Below are positions 5,379-18,225 of a DNA stretch of 64,000 bases, piece after piece. The notes under the pieces are model-generated. The model did no database searches and was not told the DNA's origin. It saw only the letters and a program-made list of their open reading frames with translations. Source of the DNA: Escherichia phage 121Q; sequence record NC_025447.1. One strand, 5' to 3'. The stretch's first letter is position 1; the number at the start of each line of letters is the position of its first letter. Position numbers and translations under genes: made by a program.

Positions 5379-6431
5379 ATGAAATCTCTAGCTGAAATTC
5401 GTGCACACCTAAAAGCAGAACAAGAAAAAGCAGAAGCTCAAAAGAATGGTACATTTACTGGCGAGCGTAAAGCTGATTCGTTCTTAGCTTTCTGGAACGT
5501 ACCTTATAACGAACCACTAAACCTACGTTTTCTACCAGATGCAGATGAGTCTAACCCATTCTTCTGGCGTGAACGTGACATGATTAACCTAACTTTCAAT
5601 GGTGTAGTCGGTATGCACACTGATAAAGTTACCGTTCAAGTACCTTGTAACGAAATGTGGGTTCCTAAATCCTGTCCGGTTCTGAAAGAAGTACGTCAAT
5701 GGTTCCAAAGTGCGAATGAAACAGGGAACGAAGAACTAAAAGCAATGGCTGGTCGTTACTGGAAGAAGAAAACCTATCTAATGCAATGTTTTATTGCTCC
5801 TGATAGCGTTGCAGTAAAAGACGACATTGCACCAGAAAATCCAATTCGTCGTATTCTGGCTAACAAAGATATCTTTGATAAAGTTAAATCCATCCTGCTA
5901 AACCCAGGAATCAAAGAGTCTCCAACTCACTACGTTCAAGGTCGTGATTTTGGTATTGTTAAAACTAAGAATGGTGGTGGTTATAATAGCTACGACATGT
6001 CTCAATTCTCCATGTCTGAGCGTCCACTAAACGAAGAAGAACTAGCAGCAATTGAAAAATATGGCCTATACAATCTAAATGATTTTATGCCAAAACAACC
6101 AACTCCAGAAGAGTTGAAAGCAATTGAAGAAATGTTCGAAGCATCAGTAAATGGTGAAGCATATGATCCAGCACGTTGGGCATTTGCATATCGTCCAGCA
6201 GGTGTACCAAAACCTAACTCTGGAACTGTTACTGAATCAAAACCAACTCCTGCTCCAGTACAACAAGAGTCAGCACCTGCACCAGTAGCACCTACTGCTC
6301 CAGTTACTCCAGCCCCACAAGCTGCTCCAGTAACTCCAGTCGCTACCCCAGCAGCAACCACTCCTGAAGCACCAAAAGAACAACTATCTGCATCTGCACT
6401 AGTTGCTCGTTTGAAACAACAAGGTAAGTAA
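5379..6431 (+). CDS. 32: single-stranded DNA-binding protein (gp32-like) with Pro/Ala-rich C-terminal tail
   Basis: RFLP motif and His/Cys zinc-site spacing (H...C...C) resemble T4 gp32; AAGGAAG RBS; hairpin terminator directly downstream. Confidence 0.65.
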   Translation: MKSLAEIRAHLKAEQEKAEAQKNGTFTGERKADSFLAFWNVPYNEPLNLRFLPDADESNPFFWRERDMINLTFNGVVGMHTDKVTVQVPCNEMWVPKSCPVLKEVRQWFQSANETGNEELKAMAGRYWKKKTYLMQCFIAPDSVAVKDDIAPENPIRRILANKDIFDKVKSILLNPGIKESPTHYVQGRDFGIVKTKNGGGYNSYDMSQFSMSERPLNEEELAAIEKYGLYNLNDFMPKQPTPEELKAIEEMFEASVNGEAYDPARWAFAYRPAGVPKPNSGTVTESKPTPAPVQQESAPAPVAPTAPVTPAPQAAPVTPVATPAATTPEAPKEQLSASALVARLKQQGK

Positions 6432-8961: not shown

Positions 8962-10446
8962 ATGAAAACTTGTAAGTTAACCTTATTGGATGAGGTGAAT
9001 TGTAAATTTGAGGGACTTGATCCCTCAATTAGACAAAAGATGATTCGTGCAACTGAATATGTGTTGCCATATGCAAAGTTCACACCAGCAGGACGTATTG
9101 GACGTTGGGATGGTAAAGTTCAGTTTATGAATTTAGGCGGGACAACTTATTATCATATGTTAGATAAGTTATTGCCTATTCTTGATGAAGCTAAGATTGA
9201 CATTGAATTAGTAGATCATAGGGTAGATTATGGATTTAAATTTGACCCTATTGATGAAGATATTTTTAGTGATGTTGTATTCGGTGCAGGACACCACATG
9301 GAAGGTAAATCCATAAAACTGCGTGAACATCAAGTTAATGCGGTTAATGCATGTTTGGCTAATCCACACGGACTACTATTGGCAGCTACTGGTGCAGGTA
9401 AAACTCTCATTACTGCTGCATTGTCAAAGAAAGTGCAAGAGTATGGACGTTCTGTTATAATAGTACCAAGTACTGATTTAGTACAACAAACATATGATGA
9501 CTATATTATGTGTGGCTTGGACACTGGTATGTTCTATGGTTCACAAAAAGATTTCGGTCACCAACATACAATCACGACTTGGCAATCTTTTAACTCTCTT
9601 TGGAAGAAAACCAAAAAAGGTGAAATAGAATTAACAGAACAAGACGTGAATGATTTTATTGATGGTGTAGTTTGTGTTATAGTTGATGAGTGTCAAGGTG
9701 CTGGTGGTGATGCATTAGTTCAAGTACTATCTAAGGTTATGAACAACGTACCATTGCGTTGGGGTCTTACTGGTACAATTCCAAAAGATCCAGTGGTTGC
9801 AGCTAAAATTAAATGTAATGTTGGTGATGTTATATTCAAAATAACTGCCAAAGAATTACAAGATAAACAGATACTAAGTACATGTAATGTGAATTGTATT
9901 AAACTAAAAAGTAGTATGAAGTTTGCATCATATGCTGAAGAGTTGAAATACTTAGTAACTGACAGAGATAGGATGGCATATGTAGCGTCATTGATATCTG
10001 CGTTATCTGAATCAGGAAACACTTTAGTTTTAGTAGATAGACTTGAAGCAGGTGAGTTGCTATGTGAATTTTTAGGTATTCCAAAATCAGAATTCGTTCG
10101 TGGAGAAACCAAAAAGAAAGATCGAGAATCATCTTATGGTGAAATTCGTTGGGCTGATAATAAAATACTTATTGCGACATACGGCGTTGCCAGTACTGGT
10201 ATTAGTATTTCAAGGTTATATAATGTAGTATTGATTGAGCCAGGAAAAAGTTTTGTAAGAACTATACAGTCAATTGGACGTGGATTACGCCGAGCAGAAG
10301 ATAAAGATCACGTAGAAATATATGATATTAGTGGTTCTAATAAGTATAGTGCAAAGCATTTACGAGAACGTTTAGCTTACTATAAGGAAGCACAATATCC
10401 TCATAGTATTATAGATGTTAAAGATTGGGAAAACACAGCGGGATAA
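8962..10446 (+). CDS. uvsW: UvsW-like SF2 DNA helicase
   Basis: Walker A ATGAGKT, DECQ box, TIQSIGRGLRR block comparable to T4 UvsW. Confidence 0.8.
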   Translation: MKTCKLTLLDEVNCKFEGLDPSIRQKMIRATEYVLPYAKFTPAGRIGRWDGKVQFMNLGGTTYYHMLDKLLPILDEAKIDIELVDHRVDYGFKFDPIDEDIFSDVVFGAGHHMEGKSIKLREHQVNAVNACLANPHGLLLAATGAGKTLITAALSKKVQEYGRSVIIVPSTDLVQQTYDDYIMCGLDTGMFYGSQKDFGHQHTITTWQSFNSLWKKTKKGEIELTEQDVNDFIDGVVCVIVDECQGAGGDALVQVLSKVMNNVPLRWGLTGTIPKDPVVAAKIKCNVGDVIFKITAKELQDKQILSTCNVNCIKLKSSMKFASYAEELKYLVTDRDRMAYVASLISALSESGNTLVLVDRLEAGELLCEFLGIPKSEFVRGETKKKDRESSYGEIRWADNKILIATYGVASTGISISRLYNVVLIEPGKSFVRTIQSIGRGLRRAEDKDHVEIYDISGSNKYSAKHLRERLAYYKEAQYPHSIIDVKDWENTAG

Positions 10447-10455
10447 ACCCGCTGT
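10435..10455 (+). terminator. hairpin overlapping uvsW stop codon
   Basis: ACAGCGGG / CCCGCTGT perfect 8-bp stem, loop ATAAA; weak T-tract. Confidence 0.5.
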
Positions 10456-10458
10456 TTG

Positions 10459-10467
10459 TGATATAAT
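10459..10467 (+). promoter_or_regulatory. extended -10 promoter element
   Basis: TGTGATATAATG immediately after the uvsW hairpin; 12-bp palindrome follows. Confidence 0.5.
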
Positions 10468-10501
10468 GTGTCATATGACAACAACAAGGATGTAAAATAA
10501 A

Positions 10502-10930
10502 ATGGAATTGAGATCTAGTATTGCTTTTATCTGTGACCAAGAAACTTTAGAAGTTATGGATGTATTGTTGAACGATGATGGTATTATGGATGACATGGTA
10601 TCTTCTCTTGACTATATACCTGAGCTAGAAACGGATGACACTAACGTATGGAGATGTAATATTGATAGTGATTCTTGGATTAATATCTATGAATTACAAA
10701 CACGAATTGATTCTAAAGTAGAATCATTGAAATATGATATCATCTATGCAAGTACTGACACGAAAACTTTTATTGATGTAGTAAGTCTAAGTGGTAATTT
10801 TGATTCATATCTGGATACTGATGTAGATAAAATTCAAGAGATGTGTGAAACTTATGGACTTGAATTTTATGGTGTAGAAGACCAAGATGATGAAGAATAT
10901 TATGATGACGAAGAAGATTCGCAGTACTAA
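10502..10930 (+). CDS. hypothetical acidic protein
   Basis: ORF track; highly acidic C-terminus; downstream of promoter-like element. Confidence 0.5.
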   Translation: MELRSSIAFICDQETLEVMDVLLNDDGIMDDMVSSLDYIPELETDDTNVWRCNIDSDSWINIYELQTRIDSKVESLKYDIIYASTDTKTFIDVVSLSGNFDSYLDTDVDKIQEMCETYGLEFYGVEDQDDEEYYDDEEDSQY

Positions 10931-10939
10931 GGAGATGAC

Positions 10940-11437
10940 ATGAACGTATTAACACCTGAAAATAATTCTTTTGACATGGATTTAGTAACAGAACATATTC
11001 CTGAAGAAATGTATTGTGTTTTGGATCTAAGCCCAAATGGTGAATCTGATTTTTATTTTAGACATATTCTAAACACCGTATCATTTAATAGTATTAGTGC
11101 TGATCTTCAAATTGGTGAAAAGATTATTCAAGTGCCTCTCGGATGGCAAATTATGTTAGGTGATGAAGAAACTGGTATGGTTGAGATGTGTACAATTGAA
11201 AACATTCTTAACATGAAAGAACCAAAAGCTTTTGTTTACAATCCTATCCGTTCAATGTATCCTAAGTTTGAACCAGTCAAAGTACTACGTGTATTTGCAT
11301 TAACTACAAAGTGGCAGATACCAATGTTACCTAAAAAGAATTTACTATGTGTCCCACTACATAGTGGTGAAAATCCACCATGTGTGTACTTTGCCGATGA
11401 AAACGAAAAAATTCAAGATTTGTATCTAGGAGTATAA
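10940..11437 (+). CDS. hypothetical protein
   Basis: ORF track, compact spacing. Confidence 0.5.
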   Translation: MNVLTPENNSFDMDLVTEHIPEEMYCVLDLSPNGESDFYFRHILNTVSFNSISADLQIGEKIIQVPLGWQIMLGDEETGMVEMCTIENILNMKEPKAFVYNPIRSMYPKFEPVKVLRVFALTTKWQIPMLPKKNLLCVPLHSGENPPCVYFADENEKIQDLYLGV

Positions 11438-11441
11438 AATA

Positions 11442-12287
11442 GTGTTTGATTTCAGTGATATTAAAAATAAGTCGGTCGATGATGATGAAAAACCAACACA
11501 GCATTCTTTTTCTATTGCTGAATTTCTAAAACACATTGACCGTGCTGATTATAAGTACTATAATGACATGACCGAAAAAGAACGAAAAGAGTTTACTCCA
11601 TATACTGTTTTGCGATGGGTAAGCTCTTTAGATGATTCGTTACAAGTAACCTACCCTAGTAGTAAAGTTGAAAGTGTATTTGGAAAATGGAAATCAGGTG
11701 GTAAAGAAGCACTGACTGAACTAGTTACTGAATTAAAGTCTTCAGGGACAAATGTTTCATCAGTAACTAAGTACTGTCATAGTGATTATGATTGGCGTAT
11801 TAAATTTGCAGTCCAATCAAAAGATGACGCACAAAAATTAATATCATCAATGGTCGAATTTGGTGTATCAGGTTCCGAAATTGTTTCATTGGTAGATACT
11901 GAAGTTGTCAAATACCAACTTATTATGCTAAATGATATGGTTAATGATGGATTTTGGGATATGAAAGAACATCCAGAATTAGTATATCAGCTTATGTGTT
12001 CAGTGCATGATATGATTGGTGGACAAGAAATGCCACGTAACTGGTTAAACTTTTCTAAGAATTTCAAAAAAGCAAATAATGAATTATTTGAGTTAATTAA
12101 AAGCTCACAACCTGATACTATATCTACTCAAATGAATGAAGATGAGTACAAAATTGTTCTATTACAGTATGATAAAAAAACATTTGAGACATTTCTTGAC
12201 AATAATGGTTTTCAAGATAATGAAAAGAAATCTATGATGAAATTGTTTAAAGAAGAATGTAAAAAATATGGCAAAGAAATCAAGTAA
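11442..12287 (+). CDS. hypothetical protein
   Basis: GTG start with AGGAG RBS 9 nt upstream. Confidence 0.5.
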   Translation: MFDFSDIKNKSVDDDEKPTQHSFSIAEFLKHIDRADYKYYNDMTEKERKEFTPYTVLRWVSSLDDSLQVTYPSSKVESVFGKWKSGGKEALTELVTELKSSGTNVSSVTKYCHSDYDWRIKFAVQSKDDAQKLISSMVEFGVSGSEIVSLVDTEVVKYQLIMLNDMVNDGFWDMKEHPELVYQLMCSVHDMIGGQEMPRNWLNFSKNFKKANNELFELIKSSQPDTISTQMNEDEYKIVLLQYDKKTFETFLDNNGFQDNEKKSMMKLFKEECKKYGKEIK

Positions 12288-12978
12288 CCAAGTATATACC
12301 TGTAGATTTTGTGATCGTGAATTTAAACGTGAAGAAACTGTAAACACACATAAATGTATAAAACGTGACCGATACGAAGATCGCCAAAGCCGCCAGATGA
12401 TGGAGGCTTTTCGTATATATATGCAATTTATGGAATTGAATAAGTTCCCATTTAAAAAAGGCGTAGAGCCTTTTATTGCTTTTATAAAGTCAAAGTACTT
12501 TAATGATTTTTATAATTTTGCCGAATACTATTTGAATAATAGAGATATTATTAATGTGGACGAGTTTGTAAAGTACTTGATTATCAATAACAAACCAATC
12601 ACGGAATGGAGTACATATAAAGCAAAAGATGAATGGATATTAAAAACGATTCGTGCCGAGCACCCAAAAGAAGCAATTGCAAGAAGTGTTATCTCACTGG
12701 TTGAATGGGCTGAAAATTTGAATGTACAATGGAATACTTTCTTTGAAAATGTAAGTTCTGCTCGTGCAATTGCATGGATAGAGAGTGGTAAAATTTCACC
12801 TTGGATTATCTGGCTTGCTCCTAAAAAAAGTACTAATAAGTTTTTTAAAAAACTATCAAACTCAGAAATTGAATATATACTTAAATACATCGATCCAAGT
12901 TATTTTGAAATCAAAACTATAAAATACAAAAAGGATTGTGATGAAATTAAGATTATGCTATGTGAGGCAGGATTATGA
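12268..12978 (+). CDS. hypothetical protein with N-terminal CCHC zinc finger
   Basis: C-x2-C-x12-H-x-C near N-terminus (YTCRFCDREF...NTHKC). Confidence 0.5.
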   Translation: MAKKSSNQVYTCRFCDREFKREETVNTHKCIKRDRYEDRQSRQMMEAFRIYMQFMELNKFPFKKGVEPFIAFIKSKYFNDFYNFAEYYLNNRDIINVDEFVKYLIINNKPITEWSTYKAKDEWILKTIRAEHPKEAIARSVISLVEWAENLNVQWNTFFENVSSARAIAWIESGKISPWIIWLAPKKSTNKFFKKLSNSEIEYILKYIDPSYFEIKTIKYKKDCDEIKIMLCEAGL

Positions 12979-13304
12979 ATGGAAAAAGTATATATAATAA
13001 AATACCAGAAGGGTATGTACCTGTACCTAAAGAACAAAAATCAAAACAAATATCTCTACTTAGACAAGGATCTATTACTGAAATAACTTTAGATGGTAAA
13101 ACATTTCAAGTTCATGATCCTGCTCGTATTGAAAAAATTATTTCTTTGGTAGAAAGACACGAAGAACGATTTTTCAGTTTAAGTCAAGAGTTGGCAAAGA
13201 CAAAACAAAATTGTAGACTATTAGAGAATCAAATATCAACTTTGACTAATACAGTTAAACAGTTACAGGAGCAAATAAAAAATGCAGGATTCGACCGATT
13301 CTAA
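12975..13304 (+). CDS. hypothetical coiled-coil protein
   Basis: ORF track; overlapping start/stop. Confidence 0.45.
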   Translation: MNGKSIYNKIPEGYVPVPKEQKSKQISLLRQGSITEITLDGKTFQVHDPARIEKIISLVERHEERFFSLSQELAKTKQNCRLLENQISTLTNTVKQLQEQIKNAGFDRF

Positions 13305-13920
13305 ACATTATAGAAAAGCCCGAACTGATATTGACATTGACTTCAAGGATAGTAAAAGCGTAATTGCAAAACTTCCTTGCGTGCGAAGTACTGAAAAAAT
13401 TACGGAGGATGGTTTAATCCCCCATAATAGTGGTGTTCATTTTGATAATATACCAATTGATCCAATAACCGGATTGGCAAGTATACAATATAAAGAAGCT
13501 GAAAGTCTAGGATATCAAAAAGTTGATATTCTTTCACAGTCAGCTTACATGTATGTTCGTGATAGAGAGCATTTAAAAGAACTAATGAATCAGGAACCAA
13601 ATTGGGATCTATTATTAGAACCGGAAATTGTAGAACATCTTTCGCAAATTAAAAAACATGTAACTTTATTAAATGTATGGAAACCTAAATCCATAGACGA
13701 ACTTGCAATGTTTATTGCAATGATACGCCCTGGAAAAAGGCAGTGCCAAAGTATGAACACATGGGACGAAGTTAAAGCCACCATATGGGATTATAGTACT
13801 ATCGGCACTGACCAAGCAGGAAATAAATTACGATATTTCAAAAAGCCACATGCTTATGCATATAGCTTAATGATTGTTGTACAACTAAATGCTTTAGTTG
13901 AACATCTTACTTCTTCTTAA
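13282..13920 (+). CDS. hypothetical protein
   Basis: ORF track. Confidence 0.5.
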   Translation: MQDSTDSKHYRKARTDIDIDFKDSKSVIAKLPCVRSTEKITEDGLIPHNSGVHFDNIPIDPITGLASIQYKEAESLGYQKVDILSQSAYMYVRDREHLKELMNQEPNWDLLLEPEIVEHLSQIKKHVTLLNVWKPKSIDELAMFIAMIRPGKRQCQSMNTWDEVKATIWDYSTIGTDQAGNKLRYFKKPHAYAYSLMIVVQLNALVEHLTSS

Positions 13921-14260
13921 GAGCCACATTACGACGCTTGATGCGTTTTTGTGGCAAATTGCTTAAAGAAACTACTGGACCACATACGAAATTCACCGAC
14001 GGTGTATCGAATCTCTGTGTGTACGGTTCAAATTTCTCCATCTCTTCTTGAAAGAATAGACAAACTGGAATGGTTCTATTACTTTGCCACCACCAATCGT
14101 GTGCTATACCTAACAATTCGTCTTGCATTGAATCATCCATATCATCGAAACAGTAAAGAGTTGTATACTGTTTGCTTTTGATTTTGATGATACCAACAAA
14201 CGTTTTACCATCATACTGGATTACAGTAATGAATGGTGGAATAGTGTTATATTGATTCAT
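13907..14260 (-). CDS. hypothetical protein (isolated minus-strand gene)
   Basis: 117 aa ORF fills the gap between two plus-strand genes; weak SD; palindromic late-promoter-like element just upstream. Confidence 0.4.
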   Translation of the reverse strand: MNQYNTIPPFITVIQYDGKTFVGIIKIKSKQYTTLYCFDDMDDSMQDELLGIAHDWWWQSNRTIPVCLFFQEEMEKFEPYTQRFDTPSVNFVCGPVVSLSNLPQKRIKRRNVALKKK

Positions 14261-14278
14261 ATTAGTTCCATAAATATT

Positions 14279-14292
14279 AGTATAAATTTATA
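14279..14292. promoter_or_regulatory. palindromic late-promoter-like element between divergent genes
   Basis: TATAAATTTATA is its own reverse complement and gives TATAAAT on both strands, about 26-30 nt from both divergent ATGs. Confidence 0.35.
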
Positions 14293-14317
14293 CCTATTAT
14301 TTATGGAAGGAAAAACT

Positions 14318-15295
14318 ATGGCTCATCACGGCGTGTTTATGTACCCTTATAATCAGGAAGTATCATTGGGCAATTTTAATATGCCATATAGCAATGAAAA
14401 ACTAACTATATATAGAGGGGCAAATAATAATTTATCTTTTACTGTTCACAACGCTGATGGAAAATATACTTTATTGAAAGATAATGAATATCTTACATTT
14501 ATGATTTTTGATGCACGAAATAATACTAAACTATTTGATGTTGTATTAGAAAAACAAGAACCCAGTTGGTTATCAGAAAGTGGACAAGCAAGACAAACAT
14601 TAGGAAATAAAAAGAAAGTATATTATGGATGTATTGTTCCAGCAGGAGTTATTCAAGATACCAGTCCTGGTTCAAAATATAGATGGAGCATTACTAAAGT
14701 AACAATGGATGGTTCACTTATAGAACCAACACAATATCTATACACAGGAATGAACTTTGAAGCATCAGCAGAGCTAATAATTTCAGACCAAGCAGCACCT
14801 GTATTTGTCCCCAGTACTGAAATATCAGTTAATAAAAATCCAGCATGGACAACTATAAAGCGTTTATATCATGAACCAATTGGAAATGGTATGATTGGTG
14901 AATATGATATTCTCGCATCAACTCCATTACCAGCACAAATGCAGTTTGGATTGGTAGATGGATTAAGTAGTATTGCAATCTATTTTGATAAATTCATTGG
15001 TAGAATACAGCTACAAGGGTGCTTGTGTAACAACGTACCTAATGATAATGAAAACTATAAATGGTTTATTATTAAATTAGATGGAAAGGATTATATTGAA
15101 AATGGAATTGATTCAGACGGTTTTCCAAAAGAACTTGATGGAATACAAGCATTTAATTTTAAAGGAAATTATATGTGGTTACGTTTGGTGGTTGCTATTC
15201 ATCCCAAAATTGTTCCAGTACCATATGACTATGCTGCTGTCCGAAAAGTGTATGACCCTTTCCTAACAGTACCTAAAATTTTGATACGTAGATGA
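14318..15295 (+). CDS. hypothetical protein
   Basis: Start placed at ATG 14318 behind GGAAGGA RBS (ORF track begins 14252). Confidence 0.5.
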   Translation: MAHHGVFMYPYNQEVSLGNFNMPYSNEKLTIYRGANNNLSFTVHNADGKYTLLKDNEYLTFMIFDARNNTKLFDVVLEKQEPSWLSESGQARQTLGNKKKVYYGCIVPAGVIQDTSPGSKYRWSITKVTMDGSLIEPTQYLYTGMNFEASAELIISDQAAPVFVPSTEISVNKNPAWTTIKRLYHEPIGNGMIGEYDILASTPLPAQMQFGLVDGLSSIAIYFDKFIGRIQLQGCLCNNVPNDNENYKWFIIKLDGKDYIENGIDSDGFPKELDGIQAFNFKGNYMWLRLVVAIHPKIVPVPYDYAAVRKVYDPFLTVPKILIRR

Positions 15296-15312
15296 GACAA
15301 AACTGGAAGGTG

Positions 15313-15321
15313 TGCTATAAT
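15313..15321 (+). promoter_or_regulatory. extended -10 promoter element upstream of primase
   Basis: TGTGCTATAAT 30 nt upstream of the primase ATG. Confidence 0.5.
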
Positions 15322-15350
15322 CATTTGTAAGAAAAGACAAGGATTAACTT

Positions 15351-16406
15351 ATGAACGCTGTACAAAACATAATGGCACAAATTATGAATGATCCAGTACC
15401 TGCGATGGGTACATGGTCACATCACAACTGTCCAGCTTGTGTGTTCAGAGGACATTCAAGGCCGGATACAAAGCACCGTGGTAATCATATGTTCAATGCA
15501 GATGGTTCCGTTTCATATAACTGCTTTAACTGTAGTTTAAAAACTGGTTGGCAACCAGGAAAATATATGAGCAAAGATATGGAGTCTTTGCTCATTTCTT
15601 TTGGTGCACAAGATAAAGAAATAGAATTAGTAAAGTTTTATATTAAAGAAATGGTTGACAGCGGTGATTTTGCTGCACAAGAAACTGTTGCATCAAAATT
15701 GTATGACCGAGTAACAGTACGTGATTTGCCATCAAATGCAAAAACATTTTGGGAATGGGCTTCTTTACCTGAAGATAAAATTCCACAAGAATTTATAAGT
15801 GTTTTGCATAATGTCAATGAAAGAAACCCATATCTGTTAGACTTAGAATTATATTGGTCACCTAATAAAGAACATAAAATGTATGACAGATTTATTATTC
15901 CATATTTCATGAATGGTAAAATTATTGGTTATACTGCACGACATAAATTAAAAGATCCTGGAAGTACATACAGGTTTATAAATCAAGTAAGTACTAATAT
16001 ACTATATAACTATGATTTATTAAAAGATGAACGAATAAAAACAATTTTAGTATGTGAGGGTCCGTTAGACGCAGCATTAATGGGTGGTGTATCTGCTAAT
16101 AACTTTAAATTATCAAACGTACAGATTGATGTATTAAAAGATGCACAGCAAAAAGGTAAAAAAATAGTTATTGTTCCAGATAGAGATAAAGATGGATTAA
16201 TAACTATAGACCAAGCACTTGAAAATGGATTCAGTGTTTCCTTCCCAGACTTTGGTGCTGTAAGAGAAGGTAGTACAATACGTCATATCAAGGACTTTGA
16301 AGAAGCTTGTGCACGATTTGGTAGGTTATTTTGTTTACAATTAATACATGATAGTATAGTAGATGAGCCATTTTATATTAAAGCTCAAACGGATAAATGG
16401 ATGTAA
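15351..16406 (+). CDS. 61: DNA primase (gp61-like)
   Basis: N-terminal zinc ribbon (CPAC...CFNC) and TOPRIM-like block IVIVPDRDKDG, as in T4 gp61. Confidence 0.8.
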   Translation: MNAVQNIMAQIMNDPVPAMGTWSHHNCPACVFRGHSRPDTKHRGNHMFNADGSVSYNCFNCSLKTGWQPGKYMSKDMESLLISFGAQDKEIELVKFYIKEMVDSGDFAAQETVASKLYDRVTVRDLPSNAKTFWEWASLPEDKIPQEFISVLHNVNERNPYLLDLELYWSPNKEHKMYDRFIIPYFMNGKIIGYTARHKLKDPGSTYRFINQVSTNILYNYDLLKDERIKTILVCEGPLDAALMGGVSANNFKLSNVQIDVLKDAQQKGKKIVIVPDRDKDGLITIDQALENGFSVSFPDFGAVREGSTIRHIKDFEEACARFGRLFCLQLIHDSIVDEPFYIKAQTDKWM

Positions 16407-16428
16407 TACATATAATGAGGGAACATAG

Positions 16429-17949
16429 ATGATTCAAAGCACAGTGGATGTGAAACAATATGGGATTAATGCACAACAATACTTATTATCTCAGATTTTC
16501 AGTAATCCTGATTTATATGTACGTTGTAAAAATATCCTTAAACCAGAATATTTTGATAAAACATTTCATGAAAGTATTCAATACGTGCATGATTATGCTG
16601 CAAAATATAGTTCATCACCTACTTTAAAAGATATTGAAGTTAAAGGTGGTTATCAATACGATCAATATGAAGTTCAAGAATTACATAAACAATCAGTACT
16701 TGATACATGTGGTGAATTTTGTCGCCATAAAGCATTAGCTTTAGCCGTTGAAAAAGGAATGGAACTTGTCCATCAGAAAAAATATGGTGGAATCGAAGAA
16801 CTAATCCGAGAAGCAATGTTGGTAACGGTACAGAATGAGTTAGGTTTGGATATTTTTGAAAACCCTGAAGATACAATCCGCTCACTCAGTACAATGCAAG
16901 GGTCATTTAAGAGTGGTTGGGAAACTCTTGATTACAAACTTTTCGGTGGATTTGGGCGTAGAGAGTTAGAGATCTTTGCTGCTGCATCAGGTGGTGGTAA
17001 ATCAGTAGTACTGCAAAATTTAGCAGTTAACTTTGCGAAAGCTGGTATGAATGGTGCATACATTTCACTTGAACTAGCTGAAGAGTTGGTTGCTGTTCGT
17101 ATCTATGGTATGATGACTGAATCAAAACTCAGTAACGTAAAAAATGAAGCTGAAAAGATTGGATTTGCTGTTAAAGTTGAAGGTAAAAACAGTGGTATGT
17201 TGCGTATTAAACGCTTACCTGAATCTGTAACAACCACTGACGATATTGAAAGTTATCTACGTGAATTACAAATTAAGATGGAAATCAAACTTGATTATGT
17301 ATGCGTGGACTATTTGGATCTATTAACTTCTAATCGTCTTGGACCAAATGATAAATCCAATACATTTACTAAAGATAAGTTTGTATCAGAAGAATTACGT
17401 GCACTTGCAACCAAAATGGATTTAACTGTTTTCACTGCATCTCAGTTTAACCGTAGTGGTATGGACGAAGATAAGAAAAGTCAAAGTCAGATTGCTGGTG
17501 GTATTTCGAAAATTTATACTGCTGATAACGTAATTTATATTGAGGCACGAAAAGAAACTGGCGAACTATGGTTTGATTTCCAAAAAACACGTAACAGTAG
17601 TGCAGTAGGTTCCCGTTTGCGTATGTCATATGATATTGATTCATTGAGAGTTCTTGACCACGCAACTACAGTACAACAAATGGAAACCGAAGGTAATGGA
17701 TTCCGTCACAGCGGTGTTTCTAAGATTGGTGGAGGGAATATGGCGTTACCACCCAGCACTATGCAAACATTACGTCATACGCTTTCTGGTGCAGCTAAAT
17801 CACCATCTGTGCAACCTGACAATACAGTAACACTAAATACTGATAGTGCTCCTAACTCTACGACACAAAACGAAATACAGAATCCACAGACACATGCTGG
17901 TACTGATCGTGTTCATGCAATGAAGCAATGGTTAAATCAAAGGAAATGA
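16429..17949 (+). CDS. 41: replicative DNA helicase (gp41/DnaB-like)
   Basis: Walker A AAASGGGKS, RecA-like core CVDYLD, order primase then helicase. Confidence 0.8.
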   Translation: MIQSTVDVKQYGINAQQYLLSQIFSNPDLYVRCKNILKPEYFDKTFHESIQYVHDYAAKYSSSPTLKDIEVKGGYQYDQYEVQELHKQSVLDTCGEFCRHKALALAVEKGMELVHQKKYGGIEELIREAMLVTVQNELGLDIFENPEDTIRSLSTMQGSFKSGWETLDYKLFGGFGRRELEIFAAASGGGKSVVLQNLAVNFAKAGMNGAYISLELAEELVAVRIYGMMTESKLSNVKNEAEKIGFAVKVEGKNSGMLRIKRLPESVTTTDDIESYLRELQIKMEIKLDYVCVDYLDLLTSNRLGPNDKSNTFTKDKFVSEELRALATKMDLTVFTASQFNRSGMDEDKKSQSQIAGGISKIYTADNVIYIEARKETGELWFDFQKTRNSSAVGSRLRMSYDIDSLRVLDHATTVQQMETEGNGFRHSGVSKIGGGNMALPPSTMQTLRHTLSGAAKSPSVQPDNTVTLNTDSAPNSTTQNEIQNPQTHAGTDRVHAMKQWLNQRK

Positions 17950-17952
17950 TAA

Positions 17953-18225
17953 ATGTCTAGTAAATCCAATAAAAAGAATCTACTTGATAGTATAGTTGAC
18001 TATACGCCAGAGAAAGATACATTACAGAGTTTTAGTAATCGTGCCGACCACGCAATAAACTCTGTGATTCATTTATTGGAGAGCATTGAAGATGAGTTTA
18101 ACCAAACTGATGCTGAAGATTTAAAAAAACGCTTATTTCTAAGTATAAAAAACCGAGATTATAAAAAGTTTCAAAAAGGGTTAGAGAATATAGCACTTGA
18201 TGAAAAACGTAATAAAGGAAATTAA
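17953..18225 (+). CDS. hypothetical protein
   Basis: ORF track. Confidence 0.45.
   Translation: MSSKSNKKNLLDSIVDYTPEKDTLQSFSNRADHAINSVIHLLESIEDEFNQTDAEDLKKRLFLSIKNRDYKKFQKGLENIALDEKRNKGN

Follow-up and report, generated by a model that had tools for sequence, protein, structure and literature searches.

In the window, that is, the whole stretch of 64,000 nucleotides (nt) of Escherichia phage 121Q DNA that was analyzed (sequence record NC_025447.1), a gene at positions 12268..12978 on the plus strand encodes a basic protein of 236 amino acids (aa) with a zinc finger at its N-terminus. We consider it probable that this gene codes for a divergent, fork-binding helicase loader of the gp59 type that carries an N-terminal classical zinc finger. 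The strongest single argument for this reading is that the best match of the protein among 48,164 structures corresponds to the one function that is missing from the replication module.

The window DNA is ~99% identical to that of the Asteriusvirus jumbo coliphages (PBECO4, 121Q-like phages, phAPEC6 and others), and the phage is a PBECO4/121Q-like (Rak2-like, "group 2.2") jumbo coliphage. The open reading frame (ORF) starts with ATG, encodes 236 aa plus a stop codon, and shares 20 nt with the ORF before it and 4 nt with the one after it. It corresponds to PBECO4 gp490 (YP_009150804.1), which is labelled 'hypothetical protein', and a few records name it 'zinc-finger domain protein'. Searches of Pfam, NCBIfam and PHROGs returned weak finger matches and PHROG 11058 (function unknown), which matches the protein end to end (E 2e-107), and no more. 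Scans for sigma-70 promoters, terminators and T4 late promoters (TATAAATA) gave matches at or below chance. The features of the gene are as follows.

12268..12978 (+): complete gene of the 236-aa zinc-finger protein; full-length match to PHROG 11058
12295..12357 (+): classical beta-beta-alpha finger with C2HC ligands, residues 10-30; ligand conservation, Pfam, Protein Data Bank (PDB) matches, AlphaFold2 model
12358..12588 (+): N-terminal helical half, residues ~31-107, HMG-box-like; conserved R35, F72 and F81
12589..12975 (+): C-terminal helical domain, residues 108-236, resembling the gp59 C-domain

Resemblance of the helical body to gp59

Behind the finger, the AlphaFold2 model is all-helical and confident (predicted local distance difference test score, pLDDT, 91; predicted template modelling score, pTM, 0.79). 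The modelled helical body most resembles the phage T4 helicase-loading protein gp59, which ranked first or second of 48,164 chains in the structure comparison, and the C-terminal domain of the model has the fold seen in the gp59 structure 1C1K, with an identity of ~14-15% to gp59 in the structural alignments. The N-terminal half appears to resemble HMG boxes in its fold, as does the N-terminal half of gp59; the HMG boxes of HMGB1, SSRP1 and Abf2p have no sequence similarity to it, their scores are low, and the three-helix bundle is a widespread fold. The two proteins are also close in size and charge (236 aa and an isoelectric point, pI, of 9.07, with 40 Lys + Arg versus 32 Asp + Glu, compared to 217 aa and pI 9.37 for gp59).

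With shallow gp59 profiles, hhalign gave non-significant E-values of 0.2 and 0.054. The profiles were then enriched from IMG/VR with 82 further members of the zinc-finger family and 78 gp59 sequences. The comparison of the family with the enriched gp59 profile gave P 0.008 over 76 columns, which was both the best score and the longest alignment when set against 15 control families of the same gene block (P 0.02-0.64, 1-48 columns). When the domains were compared separately, the C-domain aligned with the gp59 C-domain over 105 columns at E 0.0012 and a probability of 19.6%, which falls short of the usual acceptance thresholds; the crossed domain pairs gave 0.11 and 0.21, and the two N-domains 0.07. 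The C-to-C score of 23.7 exceeded those of all 150 column shuffles (mean 11.4, standard deviation 2.2, maximum 19.0) and of all 150 block shuffles (mean 13.4, standard deviation 2.2, maximum 22.3). In this alignment, I-S-P-W of the family is paired with I-S-x-E-T of gp59, and D-P-x2-W...K...Y with D-x-V-W...K...Y.

The PBECO4 genome (551 coding sequences) encodes a family-B polymerase (gp43), a clamp-loader subunit (gp44), gp32, UvsX, UvsY, UvsW, Dda and primase, and also a DnaB-type helicase, gp46/47, endonuclease VII, ligase, RNase H and topoisomerase II. None of the 551 carries the annotation of a helicase loader, and a hidden Markov model built from 16 diverse gp59 sequences had no match among the 1,885 six-frame ORFs of PBECO4 (best E 0.18). 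According to the genome paper of the Rak2-like phage CBB, this phage is devoid of gp59, Rak2-like phages lack gp45 and gp62, and the CBB DnaB homologue is 25% identical to T4 gp41 (PMC5259590). Iyer et al. 2021 reported gp59 orthologues in 'several' group 2 phages only, and mentioned no zinc-finger protein (PMC7824862). The term 'helicase loader' is absent from the Rak2-group genome papers returned by our literature search, and the omics paper on PA5oct does not mention the zinc-finger homologue.

The zinc finger and its family

As proposed in the original prediction, which was made from the sequence alone, the protein carries an N-terminal C12-x2-C15-x12-H28-x-C30 motif, and direct reading of the codons locates Cys12 (tgt) at 12301-12303, Cys15 (tgt) at 12310-12312, His28 (cat) at 12349-12351 and Cys30 (tgt) at 12355-12357. 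The same prediction named the conservation of these residues in homologues as its critical point, and the conservation is very high. The motif is no product of chance: of 167 aligned relatives (~25-30% identity), 164 retain C12, 163 retain C15 and all 167 retain H28 and C30. In an alignment of 150 sequences, no columns other than H28 and C30 are invariant; R35, F72, F81, W114, E131, R139, W147, G174, S177, P178, W179 and W/F213 are nearly so. Within the C-terminal domain, the conserved positions comprise W114, E131, R139, W147, the sequence G174-x2-S177-P178-W179 and a D209/W213-type motif.

The family profile was searched against 1.84 billion cluster representatives (clusters at 50% identity), and the family comprises at least 810 clusters at E <= 1e-3, with 136 at E <= 1e-30. 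Its cultured-phage hosts (92 records) are confined to Rak2-like and PA5oct-like phages, Atu_ph07, Phosso, and Xanthomonas and Stenotrophomonas jumbo phages; no T4-like phage is found among the 40 listed of these 92 records. PBECO4 carries a single copy (E 1.6e-69).

The finger has the pattern Y-x-C-x2-C-x3-F-x5-V-x2-H-x-C and basic flanks (MAKK... and ...KCIKRDR). The Pfam models zf-C2H2 and zf-C2H2_4 are matched by 114-115 of 150 family members (best E 1.6e-11), and the family profile matches solved C2H2 fingers, namely those of Gfi-1 (E 3.5e-7) and Aart (1.2e-6), as well as ZBTB17 and Zif268. A phmmer search of the 236-aa protein against the PDB sequences returned marginal C2H2 fingers and nothing else. 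In the AlphaFold2 model, the finger region consists of two short strands and a helix (pLDDT ~88-90). The finger thus belongs to the classical C2H2 type, although it ends unusually in H-x-C: it has the C-x2-4-C-x12-H spacing, the aromatic/hydrophobic core and, in the model, the beta-beta-alpha fold, whereas the classical second ligand pair H-x3-5-H is replaced by H-x-C in 262 of 271 family fingers, which makes it a C2HC variant whose spacing is unusually short.

The C-x2-C-x3-F-x5-hydrophobic-x2-H pattern is shared with the classical C2H2 fingers of Zif268, Gfi-1, the single-finger GAGA factor and SUPERMAN, and with C2HC variants such as the FOG or BIRD-IDD fingers. As in single-finger DNA binders, the single finger has basic residues on either side. 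It differs from classical fingers in its fourth ligand, a Cys located two residues past the His instead of H-x3-5-H/C, and in being fused to a replisome-type helical body with no regulatory domain. Classical fingers are uncommon in phages. A standalone primase-type zinc ribbon, as described by Iyer et al., was also considered and rejected, because the motif is of the beta-beta-alpha C2H2 type and the primase has a ribbon of its own. A candidate for the standalone zinc ribbon of the group 2 phages is PBECO4 gp508 (68 aa, 'zinc ribbon domain-containing protein').

Judging from its near-invariant ligands, the finger presumably binds zinc. It is likely to be of the nucleic-acid-binding type, and binding of nucleic acid is a reasonable expectation given the Pfam C2H2 matches, the matches to DNA-binding fingers in the PDB and the tandem copies in relatives. 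Such copies, 2-4 in number and separated by Lys-rich linkers, were found in 17 of 248 members. The conservation of the 'recognition helix' positions (E22 in 137 of 167 sequences, T24 in the consensus) points to a single unvarying target and not to a range of different DNA sequences. Among the metagenome members, P0150, P0156, P0041, P0120 and P0112 carry 2-4 tandem C-x2-C-x12-H-x-C fingers on N-terminal extensions of ~100-140 aa, and P0100 has an Ala/Lys/Glu-rich helical extension followed by a single finger.

Proposed helicase loading and alternative readings

T4 gp59 binds fork and cruciform DNA, gp32 (through the gp32 C-terminal domain) and gp41, and loads the helicase on gp32-coated single-stranded DNA (PMC3012046). 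In a loader of this type, the C2HC finger with its zinc ion and basic flanking residues, together with the HMG-like N-terminal half, would attach to duplex or branched DNA at forks or D-loops, the gp59-related C-terminal helical domain would contact the lagging strand coated with single-stranded DNA-binding protein (SSB), and the same domain would recruit the phage DnaB/gp41-type helicase and thereby primase. Gp59 also reportedly binds the gp41 C-terminus (Jones, Mueser and Nossal 2000). DNA binding, helicase loading and contact with the SSB and helicase C-terminal tips are putative activities of the zinc-finger protein.

These tips are similar to each other. A variable low-complexity linker (Pro/Ala/Thr/Ser-rich) followed by a short, conserved, amphipathic basic C-terminal tip is found at the end of the DnaB homologues of all loci and of the gp32 homologues wherever these occur, and the type of tip is kept across distant relatives. 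Helicase tips read ...DRLKSLLRKSE, ...ARLRNLLSGNR and ...SSMRNFLNGRM, and that of the window helicase ...HAMKQWLNQRK; SSB tips read ...ADLVAKLKAKSGQ and ...QDILAAIRARKGE, and that of the window SSB ...SALVARLKQQGK. The UvsX tails are acidic, unlike these tips. The similarity suggests a docking partner common to SSB and helicase, and we offer as a speculative but testable guess that the zinc-finger protein has a docking site for both.

Like T4 gp59, the gene is encoded together with gp32, a gp41-type helicase, a gp61-type primase and UvsX/Y/W, and is present in one copy in PBECO4; unlike in T4-like phages, it is not directly adjacent to gene 32. DnaC, phage lambda P and DciA have the same job as that proposed here, that is, placing a DnaB-family hexamer on SSB-covered DNA. 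The family has no AAA+ domain and no similarity to them in any search, and, like gp59, the zinc-finger protein would be ATP-independent.

Several points weigh against a gp59-type loader. The 236-aa protein has no match to Pfam T4_Gp59_N (PF08993) or T4_gp59_C (PF08994), even at E <= 1. HMMER cross-scores between the family and gp59 were no better than those of reversed or shuffled controls, and for this reason no sequence homology is claimed from HMMER. The hhalign probabilities amount to 5-20%, and the N-domain comparison with the gp59 N-domain profile was not significant (27 of 150 shuffles equalled it). Any sequence homology to gp59 is remote and not established by standard criteria, and the match of the N-domain is indirect, by way of fold resemblance. 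The structure models were built on a shallow alignment of 15-16 sequences, and a Foldseek search of BFVD returned family members only, apart from the 'DNA helicase loader' of phage phiEa2809, a gp59-like protein whose E of 3.5 is not significant. T4 gp59 has no zinc finger, whereas the family has an N-terminal C2HC finger, and up to four in some relatives. The local gp32 homologue has no acidic tail of the kind that T4 gp59 binds, and the contacts must therefore differ from those in T4. Finally, the loader function is a computational prediction.

The gene context was compared in 82 loci, namely 80 IMG/VR loci located with a 16-sequence alignment, PA5oct and Atu_ph07. A role in the replisome other than loading, for instance as a DNA-binding subunit or adaptor of the split minimal DNA polymerase III (Pol III) alpha encoded directly downstream, as a primase- or clamp-related factor, or in a complex with the two unknown proteins encoded upstream, is possible but distinctly less probable than loading. 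It would fit the facts that the next conserved gene encodes a Pol III alpha fragment in 77 of the 82 loci and that a protein of the 281-aa family precedes the gene in all 82, and that the ORFs from o165 (165 aa) to the Pol III fragment abut or overlap, which suggests co-translation. Moreover, the zinc-finger family and the split Pol III alpha are both signatures of group 2.2 jumbo phages, and the reported absence of gp45 and gp62 leaves several replisome roles vacant. The resemblance to gp59 might also be due to convergence or chance helical packing in a protein with an unrelated DNA or RNA role, e.g. with UvsX/UvsY/UvsW on recombination intermediates or in RNA-primer handling. We regard this as improbable, since gp59 ranked at the top of a very large set of chains and represents exactly the function missing from the module, and since the profile comparison, an independent test, is in the same register and outscores 300 of 300 shuffles.

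The original prediction had further placed the gene among replication genes and suggested a nucleic-acid-binding regulator. The placement was confirmed, with SSB and UvsX/Y/W upstream and the Pol III alpha fragment, primase and DnaB downstream, and the Pfam and PDB matches make nucleic-acid binding by the finger likely. A sequence-specific transcription regulator, or an origin- or promoter-binding factor, is nevertheless very unlikely in our estimation. Classical C2H2-type fingers are indeed typical of sequence-specific DNA-binding proteins, tandem fingers occur in some relatives, and HMG-like folds are also found in transcription factors; the term 'regulator' is nonetheless unsupported, because the finger makes up ~20 of the 236 residues, the gene is fixed in the replication block (82 of 82 loci) and the body is gp59-like. 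A replisome accessory protein is thus more likely than a transcription regulator.

If the gene encodes a gp59-type loader, the assignment would close a gap, as group 2.2 phages run a T4-type replisome and yet are listed in the literature without gp59 (PMC5259590). It would also carry the gp59 family well outside the T-even-like phages, of which it has long been considered an orphan (PMC3012046), and would provide a rare case of a classical finger of the C2H2 type at work in the replisome of a prokaryotic virus. The phage group concerned includes phage-therapy candidates. A broader proposal, which we put forward tentatively and consider rather doubtful, is that the whole family (at least 810 clusters) is an unrecognised, widespread class of loaders, the deeply diverged gp59 counterpart in group 2.2 phages and their many uncultured relatives, which would use the eukaryote-type C2HC finger for fork recognition and dock both SSB and DnaB via the similar C-terminal tips behind their flexible linkers. 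If true, this would amount to a hub mechanism on a gp59 scaffold, comparable to the recognition of SSB tips in bacteria.

The conserved replication-gene block

The zinc-finger gene is preceded by genes for a gp32-like SSB, UvsX, UvsY, a DnaQ-like exonuclease and a UvsW-like helicase, and followed by those for the Pol III alpha fragment, primase and DnaB helicase. Nine genes, which span 8962..18225 (+) in the window, have the same order on one strand in all 82 loci; where neighbours are absent from a locus, the contig ends there. In ~60 of the 82 loci (environmental contigs), the zinc-finger homologue is only 25-29% identical. In block order, with the zinc-finger gene between o281 and the Pol III alpha fragment, and with the SSB gene added at the end, the features are as follows.

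8962..10446 (+): UvsW-like superfamily 2 helicase, first gene of the block; Pfam ResIII / Helicase_C; 69 of 82 loci, order and strand constant
10940..11437 (+): o165, 165 aa, function unknown, two genes upstream of the zinc-finger gene; PHROG 11279; 75 of 82 loci
11442..12287 (+): o281, 281 aa (conserved core ~155 aa), function unknown, directly upstream and overlapping; PHROG 11758; 82 of 82 loci
13282..13920 (+): probable split minimal Pol III alpha fragment, 212 aa; PHROG 11778 'DNA polymerase', weak Pfam DNA_pol3_finger; 77 of 82 loci
14252..15295 (+): 'virion structural' protein (core ~260 aa)
15351..16406 (+): DnaG-type primase with its own N-terminal zinc ribbon, C27-x2-C30 ... C58-x2-C61; PHROG 47; 71 of 82 loci
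16429..17949 (+): DnaB/gp41-type replicative helicase, presumed client of the proposed loader; DnaB-like label in relatives; 72 of 82 loci
17953..18225 (+): o90, small ORF
5379..6431 (+): gp32-like SSB with a Pro/Ala/Thr-rich linker

Group 2.2 jumbo phages were described by Iyer et al. 2021 as combining T4-type replication with a split minimal Pol III alpha (PMC7824862), and the product of 13282..13920 is probably one half of such a polymerase. A second small 'DNA polymerase' of PBECO4, gp449 (172 aa), is encoded ~30 kb from the Pol III fragment. Four block proteins (10940..11437, 11442..12287, 14252..15295 and 17953..18225) had no match in Pfam or NCBIfam, including when diverse members were scanned against Pfam. 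Given the reported absence of gp45 and gp62 as well from Rak2-like phages, the nine-gene block marks these four proteins as candidates for missing replisome parts.

The successive gaps between o165, o281, the zinc-finger gene, o109 and the Pol III fragment are +4, -20, -4 and -23 nt. The ORF o109 (12975..13304, +) encodes a 109-aa coiled-coil protein labelled 'virion structural protein' or 'tail needle protein gp26', and 10502..10930 (+) encodes a very acidic 142-aa protein. Both are found inside the block solely in the Rak2-like subgroup (18 of 82 loci) and look like lineage-specific insertions. A 117-aa ORF at 13907..14260 (-), between the Pol III fragment and the 'structural' gene, corresponds to PBECO4 gp487 (hypothetical); a minus-strand coding sequence is found at this position in PA5oct and Atu_ph07 as well, and it is the sole antisense gene of the block.

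Elsewhere in PBECO4 (NC_027364), and outside the present finding, ~60 kb at ~96000..157000 hold more than 120 small hypothetical genes on one strand, and ten paralogous 'regulator of chromosome condensation' (RCC1-like) genes stand in a row at 157841..170100.
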